From NCBI GenBank assembly GCA_040218735.1, contig JAVJQW010000057.1:320001-384000 (forward strand): 64,000 bases of DNA, written 5' to 3'. Position numbers and translations under genes: made by a program. This document shows, piece after piece, positions 29,768 to 36,570 of the stretch. The notes beneath the pieces were generated by a model. It was not told the DNA's origin. It searched no databases and saw only the letters and a program-made list of their open reading frames with translations. The stretch's first letter is position 1; each line of letters opens with the position of its first letter. Source of the DNA: Deltaproteobacteria bacterium. Lineage in GTDB: Bacteria > Myxococcota > Kuafuiibacteriia > Kuafuiibacteriales > Kuafuiibacteriaceae.

Positions 29768-30523
29768 TCAGAAGGTGAGGCCGAAGTCCTTCGCGAGCGC
29801 CGCGGACCACGACTGTGCGTCGGTGAGCGGCGTCTCGGTGACGACACCGTCGACCGTGTGGATGCGACGGTCGTCGCGGAGCGTGACGCGTCCGTCGGGG
29901 GTCAGCTTCGACACCACCCGCTTCTGGGTGAAGTGCGATTGAGGCGAGGTCGAGTGATGGACACACATCGCGTCGAAGTCCGACCAGGCGCGCGCATGAG
30001 GAGTGAACTGATACTGGTCCCGCCACTCCCCGTCCTTCTCCCGTGAATAGACGAGCTCGTCCCGCGCGAATGAAATCCGATGGGCGCCGTTTCTCTGCTG
30101 AACGAAATCCGAAGTGTCGGCACTCAACGGGTGGATGAAGGCGTCGCCGAAGCCGACGTCGACGAGCCACATCCCCTCGCAGTCCACCAGCAGCGCGAGG
30201 TGGTCGTGCTCTGGGCCCAGCTGCCCCCCTTCTCCGAACACCCGCGCGGAGACCCGCCGGACGCGATAGCCGAGGCCCGAGAGAAATTCGCAGAACAGGC
30301 CATTGAGCTCGTAACAAAATCCGCCGCGCCCGCGCGTGACGATCTTGTCGAACAGCGCGTCCTCTTCGAGTCGAATCGGGTGTCCCGCGTGGACGTCGAG
30401 GTTCTCGAACGGCACGGCGAGCAGGTGCGCCTCCTGTAGCGCGGCGAGCTCCGACGCGCCGCAGGTCGTGGGGGGCTCGACGCCGATGCGTCGGGCGTAC
30501 GCGAGCACACGATCTCGGTTCAC
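29768..30523 (-). CDS. Arylamine N-acetyltransferase
   Basis: VPFENLD, RGRGGFCYELN, H.ALLV and DVGFG motifs (Cys-His-Asp triad). Confidence 0.94.
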   Translation of the reverse strand: MNRDRVLAYARRIGVEPPTTCGASELAALQEAHLLAVPFENLDVHAGHPIRLEEDALFDKIVTRGRGGFCYELNGLFCEFLSGLGYRVRRVSARVFGEGGQLGPEHDHLALLVDCEGMWLVDVGFGDAFIHPLSADTSDFVQQRNGAHRISFARDELVYSREKDGEWRDQYQFTPHARAWSDFDAMCVHHSTSPQSHFTQKRVVSKLTPDGRVTLRDDRRIHTVDGVVTETPLTDAQSWSAALAKDFGLTF

Positions 30524-30596
30524 CGCGCCAGCATCGCACCGTCTCCGTGACGAAGCTCGCACGCTGCCAACGGATTGGCAGAAGGTTGATACGTCG

Positions 30597-31172
30597 TCAC
30601 GCCCGGCCGCGGCTGTGGCCGGTCGTGACACCGCCGGCGATGAGGTGCGCGAGGCGCAGCGGCTCCGGGATGTTCCCGTGGAGCGTCGTCGCCGCGAGCA
30701 GGTCGCGCGCCATCGGCACCGAGAGCCCCACGCGCTGCACGAAGACGTTCCGCAACGGCTCCATCGGCCCGGCCGCCTCGATCAGCCGCCACTTCCGCGC
30801 CGCGCCCGGCACCGCGTCGAAGAGCGCGCGCCGGATCCTCGCTTGGTTGGGTCGGCGACGCGCCACGACGAGCACCGGGATGCCGAGCGCGTCGTGGAGA
30901 CGGTGCACGTCGACGACGTTGAAGCCCGCCACCGCGATCCCCTGGAGGATCACCGCACGCACGTGACCGTCGAACGCCGAGGAGCGCACGACCTCGATCA
31001 TGCGGTCGGTCGAGTTCCGTCCGTCGCGTCGTACGCGCGTCGACAACACGCCGTCGCAGCGCGTGCGGGAGCAGACCACGCCCACCAACCGCACGTCGCC
31101 ACGATGCGAACGTTCGAACGGCGCGTCGTCGAAGCCGATCACGTTGGTGAGCGCCACGGCGCCGAGGAACAT
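30597..31172 (-). CDS. DUF99 family protein (EndoV-like predicted nuclease)
   Basis: VIGFDD, DG.NST, LQGIAVAGFNVVD and IPEPLRLAHLIA motifs. Confidence 0.88.
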   Translation of the reverse strand: MFLGAVALTNVIGFDDAPFERSHRGDVRLVGVVCSRTRCDGVLSTRVRRDGRNSTDRMIEVVRSSAFDGHVRAVILQGIAVAGFNVVDVHRLHDALGIPVLVVARRRPNQARIRRALFDAVPGAARKWRLIEAAGPMEPLRNVFVQRVGLSVPMARDLLAATTLHGNIPEPLRLAHLIAGGVTTGHSRGRA

Positions 31173-31196: not shown

Positions 31197-32057
31197 GTGG
31201 ATCTCCGCCCCGCCGAGCTGATGGGCCACTGGTACCCCGCCACCGCCGACGCGTGTGACGCCGCGCTCGCGAGCGCCGTCGTGCCCGAAGTCGACGGCGA
31301 AGCCTTCGGCGCGATCGTTCCCCACGCCGGGTGGACGTACTCCGGCGCCGTCGCGTTCGAAGCGCTCGCCGCCGTGCAGCGCCGCCGCCCCGACGCCGAC
31401 CTCGTCGTCGTGTTCGGCGGCCACCTCGGTCCGCGCGTTCCCGTGCGGGTGTTCCTCGGCGGCGCGTGGGAGACACCGTACGGACCAGCCGAGATCGCGG
31501 GGGAGCTCGCCGAGGACATCGCGATGGGCATCGAGTGTGACCCGGAGACACCGGACGAGTACTACGACGACAACGCCGTCGAGGTGGTGATGCCGATGGT
31601 CAAGAAGCTGTGGCCCGACGCCCGGTTCCTCACGATCGGCGTCCCCCCCACGGAGCGCGCGACGAAGATCGGCGCCGAGGTCCTCGACCTCGCCCGACGC
31701 CGCGGCTACGAGCGCATCGTCGCGGTCGGCTCCACCGACCTCACCCACTACGGCCCAAACTACCGCTACGTCCCCCACGGCCGCGGCCGCGTCGGGCTCG
31801 ACTGGGTGAAGAACGTCAACGACCCCGAGCTCATCGCAAAGCTGGAGTCGTTCGACAGCACCCGCATCGTCTGGACCGCACAGCGCTCGCGCAACGCGTG
31901 TTGCCCCGGCGCCGCCGCCGCCGCGATGGCCGTCGCCAAGGGCCTCGGCGCCGAGCGCGGCGTCGTCACGCGCTACACCACGAGCTACGACGTCCGCCCC
32001 CACGAAGACGAGCCCACGAGCTTCGTGGGCTACGTCGGCGTGGTGCTCGAACGCTGA
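31197..32057 (+). CDS. amrB: AmmeMemoRadiSam system protein B (MEMO1-like)
   Basis: LRPA...G.WYP, IVPHAGWTYSG, WETPYG, STDLTHYG and SFVGY motifs. Confidence 0.9.
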   Translation: MDLRPAELMGHWYPATADACDAALASAVVPEVDGEAFGAIVPHAGWTYSGAVAFEALAAVQRRRPDADLVVVFGGHLGPRVPVRVFLGGAWETPYGPAEIAGELAEDIAMGIECDPETPDEYYDDNAVEVVMPMVKKLWPDARFLTIGVPPTERATKIGAEVLDLARRRGYERIVAVGSTDLTHYGPNYRYVPHGRGRVGLDWVKNVNDPELIAKLESFDSTRIVWTAQRSRNACCPGAAAAAMAVAKGLGAERGVVTRYTTSYDVRPHEDEPTSFVGYVGVVLER

Positions 32058-32059
32058 CG

Positions 32060-32496
32060 CCAAAGCCGTTCACCCCGCGCATGGGCCAACGTCGAGCACC
32101 CACGCGGCGGCGTAAACGCCTTGCGGCCGGGCGCTACGGCCTCGCGGAAAAGCGCGCCCCTCGGCCACGCGTTTCGCCGGGCGGGTGAAGGAGCTCCGGG
32201 GACCGCCATAACCTGGGACGACGACCGCGCTGTCGAATCGCGCGCGGCAGCTGCCGTCACGCGCTGCCCTCCCGCGGCTGCGGTGGTGGATGCTCTTCAC
32301 GCCACGGACGCTCGGAGCACGAGCCCAGACTGGGCCGGGTGGTAGCGTCGCTCGCGAATCCTCCGATCGATGAACGCGTGACCCATCACCTCACGCGCCT
32401 CGTGTAGGTTGTGCGCGCGTTCTTCTTCTACTCGAGCCGTTCAACGTACAGCGAGAGCACCGCTTCGAAGATCTCTCCAATGTCCGTCCCGGGCGG
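32060..32496 (-). pseudogene. Inverted remnant of an HNH-endonuclease element (5'-truncated, HNH core deleted, internal stop)
   Basis: Reverse complement translates PPGTDIGEIFEAVLSLYVERLE*KKN, then (other frame) RAHNLHEAREVMGHAFIDRRIRERR, matching two separate parts of the plus-strand HNH ORF. Downstream DNA also matches. Confidence 0.85.
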
Positions 32497-33250
32497 ACGC
32501 GATCAGCCCGAACACCTCGGGCTGCTCGCGACCGGTGAGCTGCACATGACCGGCGTCGCGAAGCTCTCCAAGTTCATGAACGACGACAACGCCCACAGCC
32601 TCGTCGAGCAGGCGAAAAACAAGTCCAAGGCCGAGGTCGAGATGCTCATCGCTACCGAGTTCCCCGGAGCGAAGAGCTGCGAAGACCGCGTCGAGGCGGC
32701 GACGCCCGACACGTTCGCTTTTCACTTCGACGGGCGCGCCGAAGCCAAGGCGCTCTTGGATCGAGCCAAGGAGCTCACCCCGCCTGGGACGGACATCGGG
32801 GAGATCTTCGAAGCGGCGCTTGCGCTCTACGTGGAGAAGCTGGAGAGGAGGAAGAACGGAAAGACGAGCCGTCCGCGATCGAAACCCGCCGAGGATGCAC
32901 CCGTGGGTGCAGCGTACGTCCCGGCGGCAACGCGCCGCGCGGTGGTGGAGCGCGACGGCGCGCAGTGCACGTACGTGAGCCCGGGCGGTCGGCGATGCAG
33001 CGAACGGTCGAACCTCGAATTCGATCACGTGGGCGGGCGCGCGCTGGGCGCCAAGAGCGTGGTCGGTGAGTTGCGCTTGCTGTGTCGCGCGCACAACCTT
33101 CACGCGGCGAACGCAGTGATGGGTCGCGCCCTCATCGATCGGAGGATTCACGAGCGCCGCTCTACCCAGTCCAGGCAAGACGCGTGTACCGAGCGCCGGC
33201 GGCGTGACCCGCTTCCGACTTCGCCGGCACGCGCGGAGGGCAGCTCGTGA
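32497..33250 (+). pseudogene. 5'-truncated HNH endonuclease of the multicopy myxobacterial type
   Basis: GELHMTG.AKL...N...L.EQA..KSKAEVE, then RRAVVERDGAQCTYVSPGGRRC...LEFDH...LRLLCRAHN. Coding likeness begins abruptly at the 32496/32497 junction. Confidence 0.8.
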
Positions 33251-33455
33251 GAGCGATACCAGCCGGTGTTCGAGAGCGCGGCCCTCCTTCGGAGCACTGC
33301 GCTCCGCGCCCCCTCCTTCACCAGCCCCGCGAAGCGGCGGCCGAGGGACGCGTCGCTCCGCGGCGACGGCGCGCTCCCCTGCGTCGAGGCGCCCCTCGCC
33401 GCCTGATGGGGGCTCGAGGATGGCCCGTCCGCTAAGCCAACGGCATTGCGGCTCT

Positions 33456-33691
33456 AGCCGGAAGCCCGCCTCGAAAGAGGCGGGCCTGAGGGCTGTGCCA
33501 AGCAGGTTCGCGCAGCGAAGCTGCGTTATGGCCGAGCCGGAAGCCCGCCTCGAAAGAGGCGGGCCCGAGGGCTGTGCCAAGCAGGTTCGCGCAGCGAAGC
33601 TGCGTCATGGCCGAGCCGGAAGCCCGCCTCGAAAGAGGCGGGCCTGAGGGCTGTGCCAAGCAGGTTCGCGCAGCGAAGCTGCGTCATGGCC
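33456..33691. repeat. Three tandem 79-bp repeats, each with two hairpins (REP/BIME-like)
   Basis: Units start at 33456, 33535 and 33614 with only two variable internal positions. Hairpins are gcccgcctc-gaaa-gaggcgggc and cgcagc-gaa-gctgcg. Confidence 0.95.
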
Positions 33692-33729
33692 TAGTTGACT
33701 CATGGGCGGGGGTGGGCTCGATTCCGCGC

Positions 33730-34089
33730 GTGTCCATCGTCTTCTACGACGCCCTCCACGTGATCGGGGCGCTCCTCACGTTCACCGGCCTCGGCGGCCT
33801 CGCAGCGCTCGCGCTCTCGGGGAGCTACGACAACAAGGCGGCGCGCATCCCGTTCGTGATGTGCCACGGGATCGGCCTGCTGATCCTCCTCGTCGCCGGG
33901 TTCGGTGCGCTCGCGAAGCTGGGCGTCGGCTTCCCGCCGTGGGTGATCGTCAAGCTCGTGCTGTGGCTGTTCCTCGGCGCGTCCCTGACGCTGTTCAAGC
34001 GCAAGGCCGCGCTCGCGAAGACGCTGGTGCTCGTGGTGATCGCGGCCGGCGTGGCCGCCGCCTACCTCGGCAACTTCAAGCCGTTCTGA
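33730..34089 (+). CDS. Small four-TM membrane protein (SirB2/DUF2269-like)
   Basis: Y.ALHVIG, HGIGLLILLV.GFG and PPWVIVKL motifs; GTG at 33730. Confidence 0.8.
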   Translation: MSIVFYDALHVIGALLTFTGLGGLAALALSGSYDNKAARIPFVMCHGIGLLILLVAGFGALAKLGVGFPPWVIVKLVLWLFLGASLTLFKRKAALAKTLVLVVIAAGVAAAYLGNFKPF

Positions 34090-35056
34090 GCTGCGCGCGC
34101 AGCGCCTCGGAACGATCGAGCCGGGCGCCGAGCGCGTGCGGCATCGGCGCGTCCGGCACCCCGCGCCGGCGCGCGATCGTCTTCAGATCGTAGATCGGCA
34201 CGTCGAGCGCGAGGCGCTCGAACGGAGCCGCTCGCCACACGAACAGCGCGGGCACGTCCGCCAGGAACGCGCCGAGCCGCGCGGCGGCTTCGTCCGCGGA
34301 CACCACCTCGGCGTCCGCGAGGCCACACCGAGCCCAACGCTCCGCCGACACGTCCGCGTCGAGCCGGAGTGAGAGCTCCGCCGGACCGCGGCGCACCGCC
34401 CACGCGACCGCTTCACCGCCGACCCGGAGCGCCGCGCCGATCGCCGCGTCGTCCCGCGCCAACGCGACGCGCTCGGCGGACGGGCGTCGGCGCTTGCGCA
34501 TCCGCGCGACCGGTGAGGCCTGGTGCGCGACCATCCTCGCCTCGCGCGCTTCGAATGCCGCGAACAAGGTCGACACCCCGGGCGCGAGCTCGGGCTCGAA
34601 GTGTACGAGCGCCGACGCGACCGCCTCCACGGTCGCCATCCCGCGCGGCGTCTTCTCGCGGCGCGTCCGATAACGCCCCGGCGTCGACGGCGTCAGCACG
34701 ATCTTCGGGAGCGCCGCGAGCCACGGGTTGTCGCGCAGGATGACGCGCGCCCCCGACCACGTCCCGTCGATCGCGATCAGGTGCTCGGGCGCCGCGGCGG
34801 CTTCGATGGGTGTCGCGTCGTCGCCCGGCCACAGCAGCGTCCCGACGACGGGGGCGTGGGTCACGCCGCAGCGGACGTCGAGGCGTTCGAGCGAGGCCGC
34901 GAGCAGACCGAGCGTCCCGAACGCGTGTCGCGCCTCGCGGGGGTGCTGAAGGATCGTGACGGGCACGCGGTTGTCGATCCGCGCGACGATCGAACAGACG
35001 CACCCCACCGGCGATTGCCAGCACGTCGGGCAGCGGACAGGTTGCGGCGCGTTCAT
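34076..35056 (-). CDS. DTW-domain protein (tRNA-uridine aminocarboxypropyltransferase-like) with C-terminal extension
   Basis: CxxC...CxC, ILQHPRE, DGTW, Y..RRE and TVEA motifs. Confidence 0.88.
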   Translation of the reverse strand: MNAPQPVRCPTCWQSPVGCVCSIVARIDNRVPVTILQHPREARHAFGTLGLLAASLERLDVRCGVTHAPVVGTLLWPGDDATPIEAAAAPEHLIAIDGTWSGARVILRDNPWLAALPKIVLTPSTPGRYRTRREKTPRGMATVEAVASALVHFEPELAPGVSTLFAAFEAREARMVAHQASPVARMRKRRRPSAERVALARDDAAIGAALRVGGEAVAWAVRRGPAELSLRLDADVSAERWARCGLADAEVVSADEAAARLGAFLADVPALFVWRAAPFERLALDVPIYDLKTIARRRGVPDAPMPHALGARLDRSEALRAQLRTA

Positions 35057-35082
35057 CTCGACAGCGGCCTCGAAGCGCTGCG

Positions 35083-36570
35083 ATGATGCCGCCGCGCGTG
35101 CGAGCACGAAAGCCCATCTTCGTCGCGGTCGCCATCGTGACCGCCTGCCACGCGACGGAGCCGCTCGAGCCGCTCACGATCGAGGACGCGGCGTCGGTCT
35201 TCTTCGTCGGCGAGCGCGACGAGGCCCCGGCGTTCACCTACGCCTTCACCGTCGCGCCCGACGGCGCGGTCGAGCTCCCGCCGCTCGCGTCGCGGCCCGG
35301 CGATCGGTGGTGGGCGGTCGCGAACGCGTGTGACCTCGAGACCCTCGGCGTGGACGACGGCGGCACGGTGCTCGATCCGGAGCCCGCGTTCGACGCCAAC
35401 CCCTTCCCGGAGCCCATCGCCGTGCGGAGCATGAGCCCCTCGGCGGAGGGGACGTGGTCCGACGCCGCGATGTCCGCCGCGGTGGACGAAGCGCTCCGTC
35501 GCTTCCCGTTGGACCCCGAGTACCTGTGTGCGTCGGTCGAGCCCCAGCTCGACATCGCGGTGCGCGAGGTCCGGTTCGACACGCCCGATCTCTACCTGCC
35601 GACGTTCGTCACGGAGCTCGACGACGGTCGGATCTTCACCACGCTCCTGCAGGCCGACGACTTCTTCTCCTTCGCGCCGACGAGCACGACCGGCTACTCC
35701 GCGTACACCTTCGAGCTCGGCAACAGCGACGATCCGGTGCAGATCGACGTCGGGCCGCACATCGTGCTGGGCGGCTACCAGGCGCCCGACGGCGAGGTCT
35801 GGCTCGTCACCACGCAAGACCTCCTGCGTGGTCACCCGGACACGGGCTTCACCGTGGCCGCGTCGCTCGCGATGGCGACGCCGTACCGTCGCGTGTGGGT
35901 CAGCGGGATGGGGAGCGCCGACGCCACGGTGCTCGCGATCTCCACCAGCGCGTGGGACGGGCTGTCGACGCCGTTCATGCGGAGAGTGCTTCGCTACGAA
36001 GCCGGCAACGTCGTGCAGGTCGACGCGGACGACCGCGACGAGCCGATGCCGCAGACGACGTTCCTCGACAACGGCGATCTGTTCGTCATCAACCTGAAGA
36101 CCGAGCCGCAGGTCGCGACCATCTACGGTACGGGCGCGCCGCGGACGATCCCCGTCCCCGACGAGGGGCGCTTCTTCGAGCTGCTCGACGATCCGAACGC
36201 GGGCCTGTTGCTCCGCCACAGCGACAACAAGATCTTCCGCTTCGACGGCGCGGGGTTCGAGCTGTTCCTCGAAGATGTGTCGGTGCTCGGCACGCGCTTC
36301 GACACACCGACCGGGACGATCCTCGCGGGCAACGCGGTCAGCCGCGTCTCGGGGAAGCCGTCGTTCGGTCAGGTCACGGTCGTGCAGCACCTCGAACGCA
36401 CCGGCGTGTGCAGCTACCCGATGGCGGCTGCGTCGATCTCCGCGGTCAACATCCTCCCCCTCGCCGCGCCGGGGACGGTTCTCGCGACCGAGCTGTCGGC
36501 GACGCCCGGGCAGCTGCGTGCGACGACGATCACGCTCGATGCGCTCGCAGACCCCTGCCTGCTGAGGTGA
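35083..36570 (+). CDS. Hypothetical lipoprotein (beta-rich)
   Basis: Lipobox IVTAC; host codon bias. Confidence 0.7.
   Translation: MMPPRVRARKPIFVAVAIVTACHATEPLEPLTIEDAASVFFVGERDEAPAFTYAFTVAPDGAVELPPLASRPGDRWWAVANACDLETLGVDDGGTVLDPEPAFDANPFPEPIAVRSMSPSAEGTWSDAAMSAAVDEALRRFPLDPEYLCASVEPQLDIAVREVRFDTPDLYLPTFVTELDDGRIFTTLLQADDFFSFAPTSTTGYSAYTFELGNSDDPVQIDVGPHIVLGGYQAPDGEVWLVTTQDLLRGHPDTGFTVAASLAMATPYRRVWVSGMGSADATVLAISTSAWDGLSTPFMRRVLRYEAGNVVQVDADDRDEPMPQTTFLDNGDLFVINLKTEPQVATIYGTGAPRTIPVPDEGRFFELLDDPNAGLLLRHSDNKIFRFDGAGFELFLEDVSVLGTRFDTPTGTILAGNAVSRVSGKPSFGQVTVVQHLERTGVCSYPMAAASISAVNILPLAAPGTVLATELSATPGQLRATTITLDALADPCLLR

Follow-up and report, generated by a model that had tools for sequence, protein, structure and literature searches.

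The conserved tail of an HNH-nuclease gene is the 3′ arm of a dispersed, inverted-repeat-ended element in a Myxococcota genome

The ~300-nt tail that follows an HNH-nuclease gene in this Myxococcota genome belongs to a ~1.79-kb repeat, of which it forms the 3′ non-coding arm, and is not the private partner of one gene. We lean, if only narrowly, toward a reading in which the tail is the terminal inverted repeat (TIR)-ended arm of an insertion sequence (IS)-like element whose HTH-HNH dimer supplies the cuts for mobility. The window, by which we mean the whole 64,000-nt stretch of DNA that was analyzed, holds two dead copies of this element, both 5′-truncated. They lie head to head, which is why an earlier note on this DNA had seen two inverted tails.

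BLASTN of the tail against its own genome placed it at about 28 further sites, with 75 to 89% identity. The whole element is represented by 58 fragments (at least 100 bits each) on at least 38 contigs of the 11.6-Mb assembly, and 35 of the 140 contig ends fall within 25 nt of an element fragment; the family accounts for about a quarter of the assembly's contig breaks. Summed contig depth over 32463–33519 is about 30 to 90 times that of the flanks in four runs from four studies. When 24 5′ ends and 28 3′ ends are aligned, the element boundaries are sharp, and the sharp 3′ boundary common to the copies bears out the suggestion that the HNH gene and its tail travel as a unit. The alternative raised in the earlier note, that the tail is a mobility end, also gained ground: its last 27 nt are a TIR that matches the 5′ end, and 10-bp target duplications flank the unit.

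The TIRs are imperfect and 27 bp long (CAATGCCGTT(G/C)ACTTAGCGGA..., inverted at the 5′ and 3′ ends). A full copy runs from the 5′ TIR (CAATGCCGTTGACTTAGCGGA...) through ~600 nt of non-coding DNA, the 320-codon gene, and ~170 nt of non-coding DNA to the 3′ TIR (...TCCGCTAAGTGAACGGCATTG), leaving room for one ORF only, and the non-coding stretches have accumulated about ten times more indels than this ORF. A 21-nt TIR pattern (up to 4 mismatches) had 45 matches in the assembly, 42 of them at family ends, which sorted into 22 left and 20 right ends. For the 12-nt TIR tip, 36 of 89 matches lie inside the family; the remaining ones look like chance hits in coding sequence, with no usable inverted pair.

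Within the window, the earlier note had reported that DNA just downstream of a Memo-like gene, which it called amrB, aligns, as its reverse complement, with the 3′ part of the HNH-gene unit. BLASTN recovered this inverted homology (32061–32419, minus strand, against 33086–33448; 69.8% identity over 367 columns; E = 1e-31) with the whole genome as subject, a search in which separate repeat arms merge into one colinear match, and MAFFT returned the same colinear blocks that had been described. A repeat search gave the inverted arms separately:

32344–32419 and 33086–33161, inverted arms of 76 nt, 84% identity
32170–32193 and 33313–33336, inverted arms of 24 nt, 88% identity
32131–32166 and 33339–33374, inverted arms of 36 nt, 72% identity
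32257–32272 and 33235–33250, inverted arms of 16 nt, 94% identity

Both limits proposed for the homology were reproduced. The left copy stops at 32061, 3 nt past the TGA of the Memo-like gene (32055–32057), and the right copy stops at 33448, 7 nt ahead of an array of 79-bp repeats (33456–33694). The homology reaches deeper into the ORF than had been noted (32418–32496 against 32780–32858; 79 nt, 81% identity), with further homology at 32494–32522 to element positions 849–877, so the left copy is an internally deleted version of the whole 3′ half and not a tail alone. The features of this region are as follows:

31197–32057, Memo-like gene (Pfam E = 2.4e-28)
32051–32060, no strand, left flank of the composite, ACGCTGACGC, which adjoins the end of copy B and includes the TGA at 32055–32057
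32061–32087, minus strand, TIR of copy B, right-end type, CAAAGCCGTTCACCCCGCGCATGGGCC, which aligns to the family 3′ TIR
32061–32522, minus strand, copy B, old and diverged, 5′-truncated and internally deleted, from BLAST to the reference element
32411–33250, plus strand, open frame of 279 aa, from the ORF list, the family protein alignment, and element mapping
32494–32522, no strand, head-to-head inversion point, where copy B (element positions 849–877) overlaps copy A (from position 860)
32517–33448, plus strand, copy A, the 3′ 932 nt of a family member (element positions 860–1791)
32966–33097, plus strand, HNH core of copy A (C..C..DH..CRAHN)
33251–33421, plus strand, non-coding 3′ arm (the tail proper), from the stop codon to the TIR
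33422–33448, plus strand, right TIR of copy A, GGCCCGTCCGCTAAGCCAACGGCATTG, which fits the TIR pattern with 1 mismatch
33449–33458, no strand, right flank, CGGCTCTAGC
33456–33694, plus strand, array of three 79-bp repeats (3 copies, 98 to 100% identity), outside the element

Copy A is without the 5′ TIR, the 5′ non-coding region of 630 nt, and codons 1 to 76 of the gene. It is 89.8% identical to the reference copy over 934 columns and 85 to 92% identical to about 25 other copies, and the reverse complement of its right TIR matches the family 5′ TIR consensus. Genuine HNH-family coding in the 279-aa frame begins no earlier than about 32517; ahead of that point, the GTG start and some 35 codons come from copy B and the junction.

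Copy B comprises element positions 849–877, 1123–1201, and 1429–1791, and its HNH core (about element positions 1202–1428) is deleted. Its identity to the reference element in BLAST is 76.7% over 32170–32419, 82.5% over 32418–32496, and 89.7% over 32494–32522, and its 12-nt TIR tip was located at window position 32061 (C42:352061). Copy B is at single-copy depth in two runs (15.1 in X1 and 16.3 in X2), compared with 30 to 90× for copy A. The strains have the junction in common, since a contig of a second strain (run X2), with 26 differences over 2 kb, extends through copy B as far as 32522. No duplication of the right flank, CGGCTCTAGC, was seen on the left side of the composite, as expected for a rearranged pair of copies.

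Elsewhere in the genome, the 10-bp duplications that flank the element have the centre YTAR. Two copies have both ends on the same contig; the flanks agree at 10/10 positions on C29 (GGGCTAATAG) and at 9/10 on C33, and the chance per pair is 2.2e-4 for 10/10 and 3.3e-3 for at least 9/10. Among 440 cross-contig left/right pairs, 2 agree at 10/10 (column-shuffle mean, 0.075; 13 of 5000 shuffles reach 2), and only this exact-match test is significant: relaxing the threshold to 9/10 or better gave 3 pairs against a control mean of 1.33, a count that 15% of shuffles attain. A third pair, C6/C5, has 12 nt in common. The flank centre is CTAG (12), CTAA (7), or TTAG (5) in 24 of 42 cases, and the YTAR centre is often a gene's stop codon or a CTAG within REP-like repeats.

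The 79-bp unit of the window array has 42 BLAST matches in the genome and is REP-like DNA offering CTAG-type target sites. We rejected these repeats as a preferred target, with 5 of 42 element ends lying within 120 nt of a BLAST match to the window unit. Visual inspection suggests that additional flanks belong, in diverged form, to the 79-bp repeat class. The centre of the composite's left flank, CTGA, is one mismatch from the YTAR centre of other copies.

The copies are dispersed over many unrelated intergenic sites. This dispersal, the TIRs, the 10-bp duplications, and the lack of any group I or II intron in Rfam searches led us to reject a homing endonuclease gene. Contigs of the four runs revealed neither an empty site nor a polymorphic insertion; their six joints had sides of 20 to 25 nt or lay outside the element and were not usable, so we infer movement of the element and have not observed it.

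The sole ORF encodes 320 aa, with a ParB/Noc-like HTH domain followed by an HNH (His-Me finger) domain, and is under purifying selection. Identity among copies is 94.5, 94.7, and 84.6% at codon positions 1, 2, and 3, and the mean dN/dS is 0.25 over 10 pairs of 5 intact copies; the ORF is intact in 5 of the 7 full-length copies. The query protein fell below the reporting level in Pfam, with no match to DUF222 either. Among its 41 aligned homologues, to which it aligns at E values down to 1e-82, 29 match the Pfam HNH family PF01844 and 15 match PF14279. Residues C227, C237, H247, C266, H269, and N270, which cover the catalytic His, the metal-binding His/Asn, and the Cys ligands, are invariant in the 41 sequences. 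In this subfamily, Glu replaces the central Asn of the H-N-H motif, so the predicted nuclease activity is not assured. The NCBIfam model for IscB (NF040563) matched residues 225–290 only (E = 0.0022; 17.2 bits against a cut-off of 175), and PADLOC returned no defence-system family.

The AlphaFold model (pLDDT, 88.4) places strands at residues 243–247 and 262–266, followed by a helix at 267–278, and the N-terminal 200 residues are modelled as a helical HTH domain. Its best Foldseek neighbours are the HNH domains of McrA, Gme, and Cas9 together with ParB/Noc DNA-binding domains, all at E values above 0.1. Based on structure modelling, the HTH-HNH protein is predicted to form a symmetric dimer. 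The homodimer model scored 0.68, against 0.15 for the best control; at least 89% of contacts agree among the runs, with pLDDT of at least 75. Of 30 proteins solved as one-chain pairs, 20 attained the mark used for this score, as did 1 of 23 whose structures are of single chains.

In the reading that we narrowly favor, this dimer would bind both TIRs and the roughly palindromic target and would cut the element ends and, with a 10-bp stagger, the target (GGCCTAGGCC-like targets). It would do so as a transposase of a new kind or in concert with host repair and ligation. The specific claim that the transposase is the HTH-HNH protein, on its own or aided by host end-joining, strikes us as possible and rather doubtful. 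The earlier remark that no transposase is visible stood up to closer inspection: the element's one ORF is the HTH-HNH gene, it encodes no recognized transposase class (DDE, DEDD, HUH, Ser, Tyr, or Cas1), and none of the known transposases in the assembly has these ends. TIRs with target duplications are a hallmark of DDE transposition. To our knowledge, transposons with both features are moved by few enzyme classes, HNH nucleases not included, and HNH enzymes act only as hydrolytic nucleases; we know of no HNH nuclease that catalyzes strand transfer and of no transposase class with an HNH fold. A search of the open literature found no HNH-encoding insertion sequence or “HNH transposase.”

We treat as tentative, and on balance unlikely, the rival in which the element is non-autonomous, has IS4-like DDE-derived ends, and is moved in trans by a transposase that has been lost, is unassembled, or resides on another replicon. 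The HNH gene would then be cargo that is useful in some other way, for example through a nuclease that cuts empty sites so that repair restores the element, as TnpB and IscB do for IS200/IS605 elements, or as an addiction or defence nuclease. The TIR tip matches the inverted repeat of Escherichia coli K-12 IS4 at 14/21 positions, in register with the IS4 terminus, a level reached at only 2 of 39,962 positions of the 20-kb IS4 locus. The K-12 IS4 copy has a 12-bp duplication, compared with 10 to 12 bp for the HNH element, so the ends of the element could be borrowed from a DDE element. The IS4 family also resembles it in length (1.4 to 1.8 kb), single ORF, imperfect TIRs, long duplication, and roughly symmetric target. 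Unlike the IS4 family, with its DDE transposase, the present element has an HTH-HNH nuclease ORF and an unusually long 5′ non-coding region of about 600 nt.

The IS4 likeness was, however, noticed post hoc, with one IS compared only, and the assembly yielded no IS4-family transposase: NF033592 gave only a sub-threshold match, on the IS701-family gene, and PF13006 gave none. There are two PF01609 transposase genes only, of the IS701 and IS1182 families; the inverted repeats of the IS701-family copy are unrelated to the element TIRs, and no clear inverted-repeat pair was found for the IS1182-family copy. Nor does another element carry these TIRs, given that 42 of the 45 matches to the 21-nt pattern lie within the family. 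A dN/dS of 0.25 across lineages differing by dS 0.2 is not expected of non-autonomous cargo. Because the assembly, 96.5% complete, is broken at these repeats, it could conceal a longer autonomous variant.

This rival has a parallel in restriction-modification (RM) units (Furuta, Abe and Kobayashi 2010; PMC2853133), which have imperfect inverted repeats of 26 to 65 bp and 8-bp duplications and, like the HNH element, carry nuclease genes without a recognizable transposase. The RM units described there are single-copy, whole RM systems (PMC2853133), whereas the HNH element is present in dozens of copies and is a lone HNH gene with no methyltransferase.

Relatives in other genomes speak against this rival: TIRs differ among no fewer than three HNH subfamilies, a pattern that joint evolution of protein and ends explains more readily than three independent captures would. 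Homologues are present in 88 of the 401 Myxococcota genomes searched. Other subfamilies (about 35% identity) have their own, different flanking inverted repeats and no other gene. These repeats are 43 nt long at G045 and about 134 nt long at the metagenome loci L085 and L076, and identical hairpins lie on both sides at L038 and L081. Against the reading that we favor, no target duplication was visible at the G045 and L085 elements, and flanking inverted repeats above shuffle controls were absent at 22 to 23 of 25 genome loci and at 11 of 14 metagenome loci. DNA similarity among the paralogues of one genome (G165) is confined to the ORF. A DNA search of 30 relatives found only an ORF piece, 75% identical, in the nearest relative's genome (G001), whose contig stops 81 nt past the ORF. 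A metagenome scan yielded relatives at 29 to 53% identity only, and tblastn against a plasmid collection yielded no match.

A further comparison is with REP13E12, the DUF222/HNH repeat of mycobacteria, which was reportedly described by Gordon in 1999. In the accessible portions of PMC13157036 and PMC10589994, it is a multi-copy ~1.4-kb repeat that, like the HNH element, has no known transposase and a gene with an N-terminal helical domain and a C-terminal HNH domain, and it serves as a substrate for recombination and inversions. Unlike the HNH element, it is given no TIRs or target duplications in those portions of the two descriptions (PMC13157036, PMC10589994). DUF222 (PF02720) was weakly matched by 4 of our 41 homologues (best E = 1.7e-4) and not by the query; any relationship to DUF222/13E12 would be distant at best.

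The earlier note had also offered the tail as a structured non-coding RNA or guide scaffold, and neither a fold signal, nor net covariation, nor an Rfam match was found for it. That the tail, or else the 5′ non-coding region of 630 nt, encodes a structured RNA acting as guide or scaffold for the HNH protein is, in our judgment, very improbable. The idea draws on the non-coding share of the element (about 800 of 1791 nt), which is much for an insertion sequence, on the weak 17.2-bit match to the HNH part of IscB, and on the IS110/IS1111 and IscB/TnpB systems, in which long non-coding regions serve guide RNAs according to the accessible portions of PMC11187229 and PMC4810608.

The tail, however, folds no better than its shuffles (z = −0.44 and +1.07), and a 150-nt scan of the whole element on both strands stayed between z = −2.5 and +2.0. 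RNAalifold on 19 tails scored covariation at +1.35 kcal/mol, a penalty; double changes occur in 6 of 48 pairs only, each in one sequence, and broken pairs are as many as compensated ones, in a test low in power because 18 of the 19 tails are 82 to 89% identical to one another. Searching three full copies against Rfam at E values up to 1 gave just one chance-level sRNA match (E = 0.75). Tail identity among copies (87.3%) is near that of third codon positions (84.6%), and gap events per site and copy number 0.023 in the tail and 0.0024 in the ORF, about a tenfold difference. Promoter-like sites are absent from 31900–33800, and the HTH-HNH protein has its own predicted DNA-binding domain. The mobility-end reading of the tail is supported, and the guide-RNA-scaffold reading is not.

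The likeness drawn to IscB/HEARO fared no better. The HNH element shares with these OMEGA systems an HNH-domain nuclease on a small mobile element with substantial non-coding DNA, but its protein is without the RuvC and PLMP domains and no structured RNA was detected. IS200/IS605-type elements are not known to have TIRs or target duplications, and the ends found here, with both, are not of that type.

The last possibility, which the earlier note had itself named, that the tail is what remains of C-terminal coding sequence from a protein that used to be longer, is extremely unlikely: many relatives are 390 to 480 aa long with a RuvA_C-like domain behind the HNH domain (an extension found in 10 of 41 homologues and missing from the present subfamily), and 18 relatives have at least 60 aa beyond the CRAHN motif, but tblastn of these 18 extensions against 29 tails gave only weak, inconsistent matches, none convincing (best E = 0.009, 21.6 bits, opposite strand), the stop codon is kept in all 5 intact copies, and the last 27 nt of the tail are accounted for by the TIR.

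The element combines textbook transposon anatomy and dozens of copies with an only gene that is an HNH nuclease under purifying selection. If the nuclease is the driver of mobility, as in the reading we favor, this would mean new transposition chemistry or a nuclease-plus-host-repair route. An HTH-HNH transposase, if true, would be a class outside the DDE/DEDD, HUH, serine, tyrosine, and Cas1 enzymes, widespread in Myxococcota and possibly related to the DUF222/13E12 repeats of actinobacteria. Otherwise, the nuclease would be riding a non-autonomous element, in parallel to TnpB and IscB, with a protein in place of the RNA guide. Either way, the family provides a testable model for many multi-copy HNH genes of Myxococcota and perhaps for the actinobacterial DUF222 repeats.

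The inverted homology reported in the earlier note proved real and ends where it had been placed. BLASTN against the whole genome paired positions 32061 to 32419 (minus strand) with 33086 to 33448 at 69.8% identity over 367 columns (E = 1e-31), an inverted-repeat search returned colinear arms at 32131 to 32419 and 33086 to 33374, and the matching blocks quoted in the note reappeared in the alignment of both arms. The left boundary, 32061, lies 3 nt past the TGA of a Memo-like gene (Pfam E = 2.4e-28), and the right one, 33448, is 7 nt short of an array of three 79-bp units. The homology also reaches further left, into coding sequence: 32418 to 32496 matches 32780 to 32858, and 32494 to 32522 matches positions 849 to 877 of a repeated element that carries terminal inverted repeats (TIRs) and one gene for an HTH-HNH protein. 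The window holds two 5'-truncated copies of this element.

Element copies and neighbouring genes in the window
32517 to 33448, plus strand: copy A, element positions 860 to 1791, 89.8% identity
32522 down to 32061, minus strand: copy B, element positions 849 to 877, 1123 to 1201, and 1429 to 1791, 77 to 90% identity
32494 to 32522: head-to-head meeting point of copies A and B
32411 to 33250: 279-aa frame, whose start and initial ~35 codons derive from copy B plus the junction
34076 to 35107, minus strand: DTW-domain protein gene (E = 4.6e-31), an ordinary neighbour
29768 to 30631, minus strand: arylamine N-acetyltransferase gene (E = 2.5e-62), an ordinary neighbour

Both copies are relics. The real gene's 76 opening codons are missing from the 279-aa frame, the HNH core is deleted from copy B, and the last ~110 nt of that copy (32061 to 32169) align only weakly to the element. 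Contigs from public runs gave single-copy depth for copy B, and the A/B junction is also present in a second strain, with 26 differences in about 2,000 positions. Short inverted or out-of-order element fragments adjoin other copies in this genome (C39:84397-84481, C39:226105-226567, C21:193408-193561, and C35:97204-97343), just as they do in the window; copies seem often to insert into, or recombine with, one another.

The 306 nt at 33150 to 33455 had 28 further matches (75 to 89% identity) in the 11.6-Mb, 70-contig genome, and extension outward from interior copies defined a unit of ~1.79 kb. Searched with the full unit, the genome yielded 58 fragments scoring 100 bits or more. Of 140 contig ends, 35 fall no further than 25 nt from such a fragment, making this family a main cause of the breaks in the assembly. 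Summed contig depth over 32463 to 33519, roughly 30 to 90 times that of the flanks in four public runs from four studies, is not itself a copy number yet points the same way, to a multicopy family. At DNA level, a search of 30 relatives turned up a single match, covering part of the ORF at 75% identity, in the only other genome from this genus.

The reference copy (C29:143933-145723, minus strand) begins CAATG(A/C)CG, ends CGCATTG, and encodes a single 963-nt ORF (element 631 to 1593) between non-coding parts of 630 nt (5') and 198 nt (3', the tail). When the ends of all copies were aligned with their flanks (24 left, 28 right), the boundaries were sharp and the two ends mutually inverted, reading CAATGCCGTT(G/C)ACTTAGCGGA and then a less exact GGCC.GCCT. 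The 21-nt TIR pattern, with up to 4 mismatches, occurs at 45 sites, 42 of which are family ends (22 left, 20 right).

Only two copies have both ends on one contig: that on C29 is flanked by GGGCTAATAG and GGGCTAATAG, and that on C33 by CCGCTAGCGC and CCGCTAACGC. Allowing for strong site preference, the chance per pair is 2.2e-4 for 10/10 identity and 3.3e-3 for 9/10 or better. Because most copies are split between contigs, left and right flanks were also paired across contigs; 2 of 440 pairs were identical at 10/10 (C32/C45, GGATTAGCCG; C58/C53, CCTCTAGCCG), against a column-shuffle mean of 0.075, with 13 of 5,000 shuffles reaching 2. Another cross-contig pair, C6/C5, has 12 nt in common; at the looser 9/10, the 3 pairs observed did not differ significantly from the control mean of 1.33.

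Positions 4 to 7 of the flanks are CTAG, CTAA, or TTAG in 24 of 42 cases and TTGG in 4 more. The duplicated site often contains a stop codon: an ABC-2-type permease ORF has its TAG inside the 10-bp duplication on C29 (positions 1499 to 1508 of locus L017), and the Memo-like gene has its TGA in the flank of copy B (window 32051 to 32060). Where an insertion sits on a stop codon, the gene stays intact; this placement may reflect no more than a clustering of YTAR sites at stop codons when G+C content is 70%. A 5' sub-terminal sequence, GGAAAGGCCGTAGGCGGGG (element 36 to 50 of the reference copy; locus L021, about 3272 to 3258, minus strand), is similar to the preferred target, GGCCTAGGCC, but one base longer; the likeness may be accidental, or the sequence may bind a protein. 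The tandem 79-bp units at window 33456 to 33694 are 98 to 100% identical, contain two GC-rich hairpins each, and have 42 BLAST matches in the genome. By eye, many element flanks resemble diverged members of the REP-like class to which this unit belongs, as do the flanks of an IS1182-family element on C57; CTAG occurs at unit junctions of the class.

The 320-aa protein itself drew no Pfam report and only a weak NCBIfam match, to the HNH part of IscB. Among 8,000 scored candidates, 130 were homologues at E of 1e-3 or better, some named HNH or McrA-like by their source and many on contigs of 1.2 to 3 kb. In a 41-sequence alignment, PF01844 (HNH) was found in 29 members, PF14279 (HNH_5) in 15, RuvA_C in 10 (in a C-terminal extension absent from the element's subfamily), and DUF222, weakly, in 4. 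C227, C237, H247, C266, H269, and N270 are invariant, and the element's subfamily has Glu in place of the motif's central Asn. The AlphaFold monomer model, a confident one (pLDDT 88.4, pTM 0.76), had as top Foldseek matches the HNH domains of McrA, Gme, and Cas9 and the DNA-binding domains of ParB/Noc, all at E > 0.1. A two-copy model scored 0.68 versus 0.15 for the best control. Among proteins of solved structure, 20 of 30 one-chain pairs and 1 of 23 single chains came up to that mark. At least 89% of the model's contacts recur between runs (pLDDT at least 75), with an interface of the N-terminal helix and residues 141 to 189. The model supports dimerisation without demonstrating it, and a dimer would fit a symmetric target and inverted ends. 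Of the 7 full-length ORFs assembled, 5 are intact, and 10 ORF pairs gave a mean dN of 0.048 and a mean dS of 0.195 (ratio 0.25), so the copies diverged along lineages where the protein was needed.

The element has space for a single gene. Its HNH protein is about as likely as not to be needed for mobility; that this protein is the sole transposase is less likely. Alternatively, an IS4-type transposase may move the element in trans. The TIR tip matches the terminus of an E. coli IS4 copy, itself flanked by a 12-bp duplication, at 14 of 21 positions in register, a score reached at only 2 of 39,962 positions in that 20-kb IS4 locus. This likeness keeps trans-mobilisation alive but is a lead, since it was noticed post hoc and tested against this one IS. 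Against it, IS4-specific models found nothing above threshold in the 96.5%-complete assembly, and TIR pattern searches there found no other element with these ends. The genome's only two PF01609 transposase genes are of the IS701 family (L073 on C36, 778 to 2272), bounded by unrelated 22-bp inverted repeats (ACTACTGCGTCACGC...), and of the IS1182 family (L074, 105 to 1577, at the start of C57), for which no clear inverted-repeat pair was found.

The tail is very probably the right arm of this TIR-bounded element: the "mobility end" reading of the earlier note is supported by TIRs at both ends and by target duplications. Its other proposal, an RNA partner or guide scaffold, drew no support from folding, covariation, or Rfam. 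Identity among copies is 91.3% in the ORF (94.5, 94.7, and 84.6% at codon positions 1, 2, and 3), 86.2% in the 5' non-coding region, and 87.3% in the tail without its TIR. Gaps arise at ~0.023 events per site per copy in each non-coding arm versus 0.0024 in the ORF. The tail is thus non-coding, its rate of change near neutral apart from one better-kept, sub-terminal stretch (element 1701 to 1750, 93.8%). The window tail folds at -101.7 kcal/mol versus -99.7 ± 4.6 for shuffles (z = -0.44), the reference tail has z = +1.07, and 150-nt scans of both strands of the whole element stayed between -2.5 and +2.0. RNAalifold on 19 of the 29 collected tails, those lying in retrieved loci, gave -45.3 kcal/mol, the covariation term being +1.35; double changes occurred in 6 of 48 pairs, in one sequence each, and broken pairs were at least as common, a test of little power because most copies are 82 to 89% alike. 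Rfam returned nothing above chance for three full copies, and no promoter-like site was found in 31900 to 33800. Decay from the coding region of a longer protein is likewise unsupported, as the C-terminal extensions of 18 longer relatives gave a best tblastn E of 0.009, on the wrong strand.

Other subfamilies (~35% protein identity) lie between inverted repeats of their own, unrelated to these TIRs: 43 nt in genome G045 and about 134 nt at metagenome loci L085 and L076, with no target duplication visible at G045 or L085. Identical hairpins stand on both sides at L038 (G357 C23; 1504 to 1521, 2788 to 2805, and 3241 to 3270) and at L081 (2634 to 2662 and 4134 to 4162). Perfect hairpins (e.g., ACTCGTCCCGGGACGAGT), not TIRs, bracket homologous HNH genes in other Myxococcota and metagenome contigs, which points to ends built differently in those subfamilies. 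Most relatives had no inverted repeats above shuffle controls: none at 22 to 23 of the 25 loci from genomes, nor at 11 of the 14 from metagenomes. The complete 5-Mb genome G165 (L050/C1) has >10 HNH paralogues that share DNA only across the ORF, in two blocks (query 983 to 1234 and 1348 to 1879; 77 to 85% identity) around a variable middle, with homology breaking off abruptly at the 3' end of the ORF and no non-coding arms in common. The TIR and target-duplication anatomy is thus established for the family in this genome, not for the whole protein family. The subfamily-specific repeats fit co-evolution of protein and ends.

The anatomy is that of an insertion sequence, and the gene fits no recognised transposase class. 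Full-text literature searches (ISfinder and subscription journals lay outside them) found no description of an insertion sequence with an HNH nuclease as its only gene. The element does not belong to IscB/HEARO: it has no RuvC domain and no detected structured RNA, and it ends in TIRs with target duplications. It resembles restriction-modification units that lack a transposase and have inverted repeats and duplications, 8-bp in those units (Furuta et al., PMC2853133), and the mycobacterial DUF222/HNH 13E12 repeats, a multicopy HNH gene of unexplained mobility that fuels rearrangements (PMC13157036, PMC10589994).
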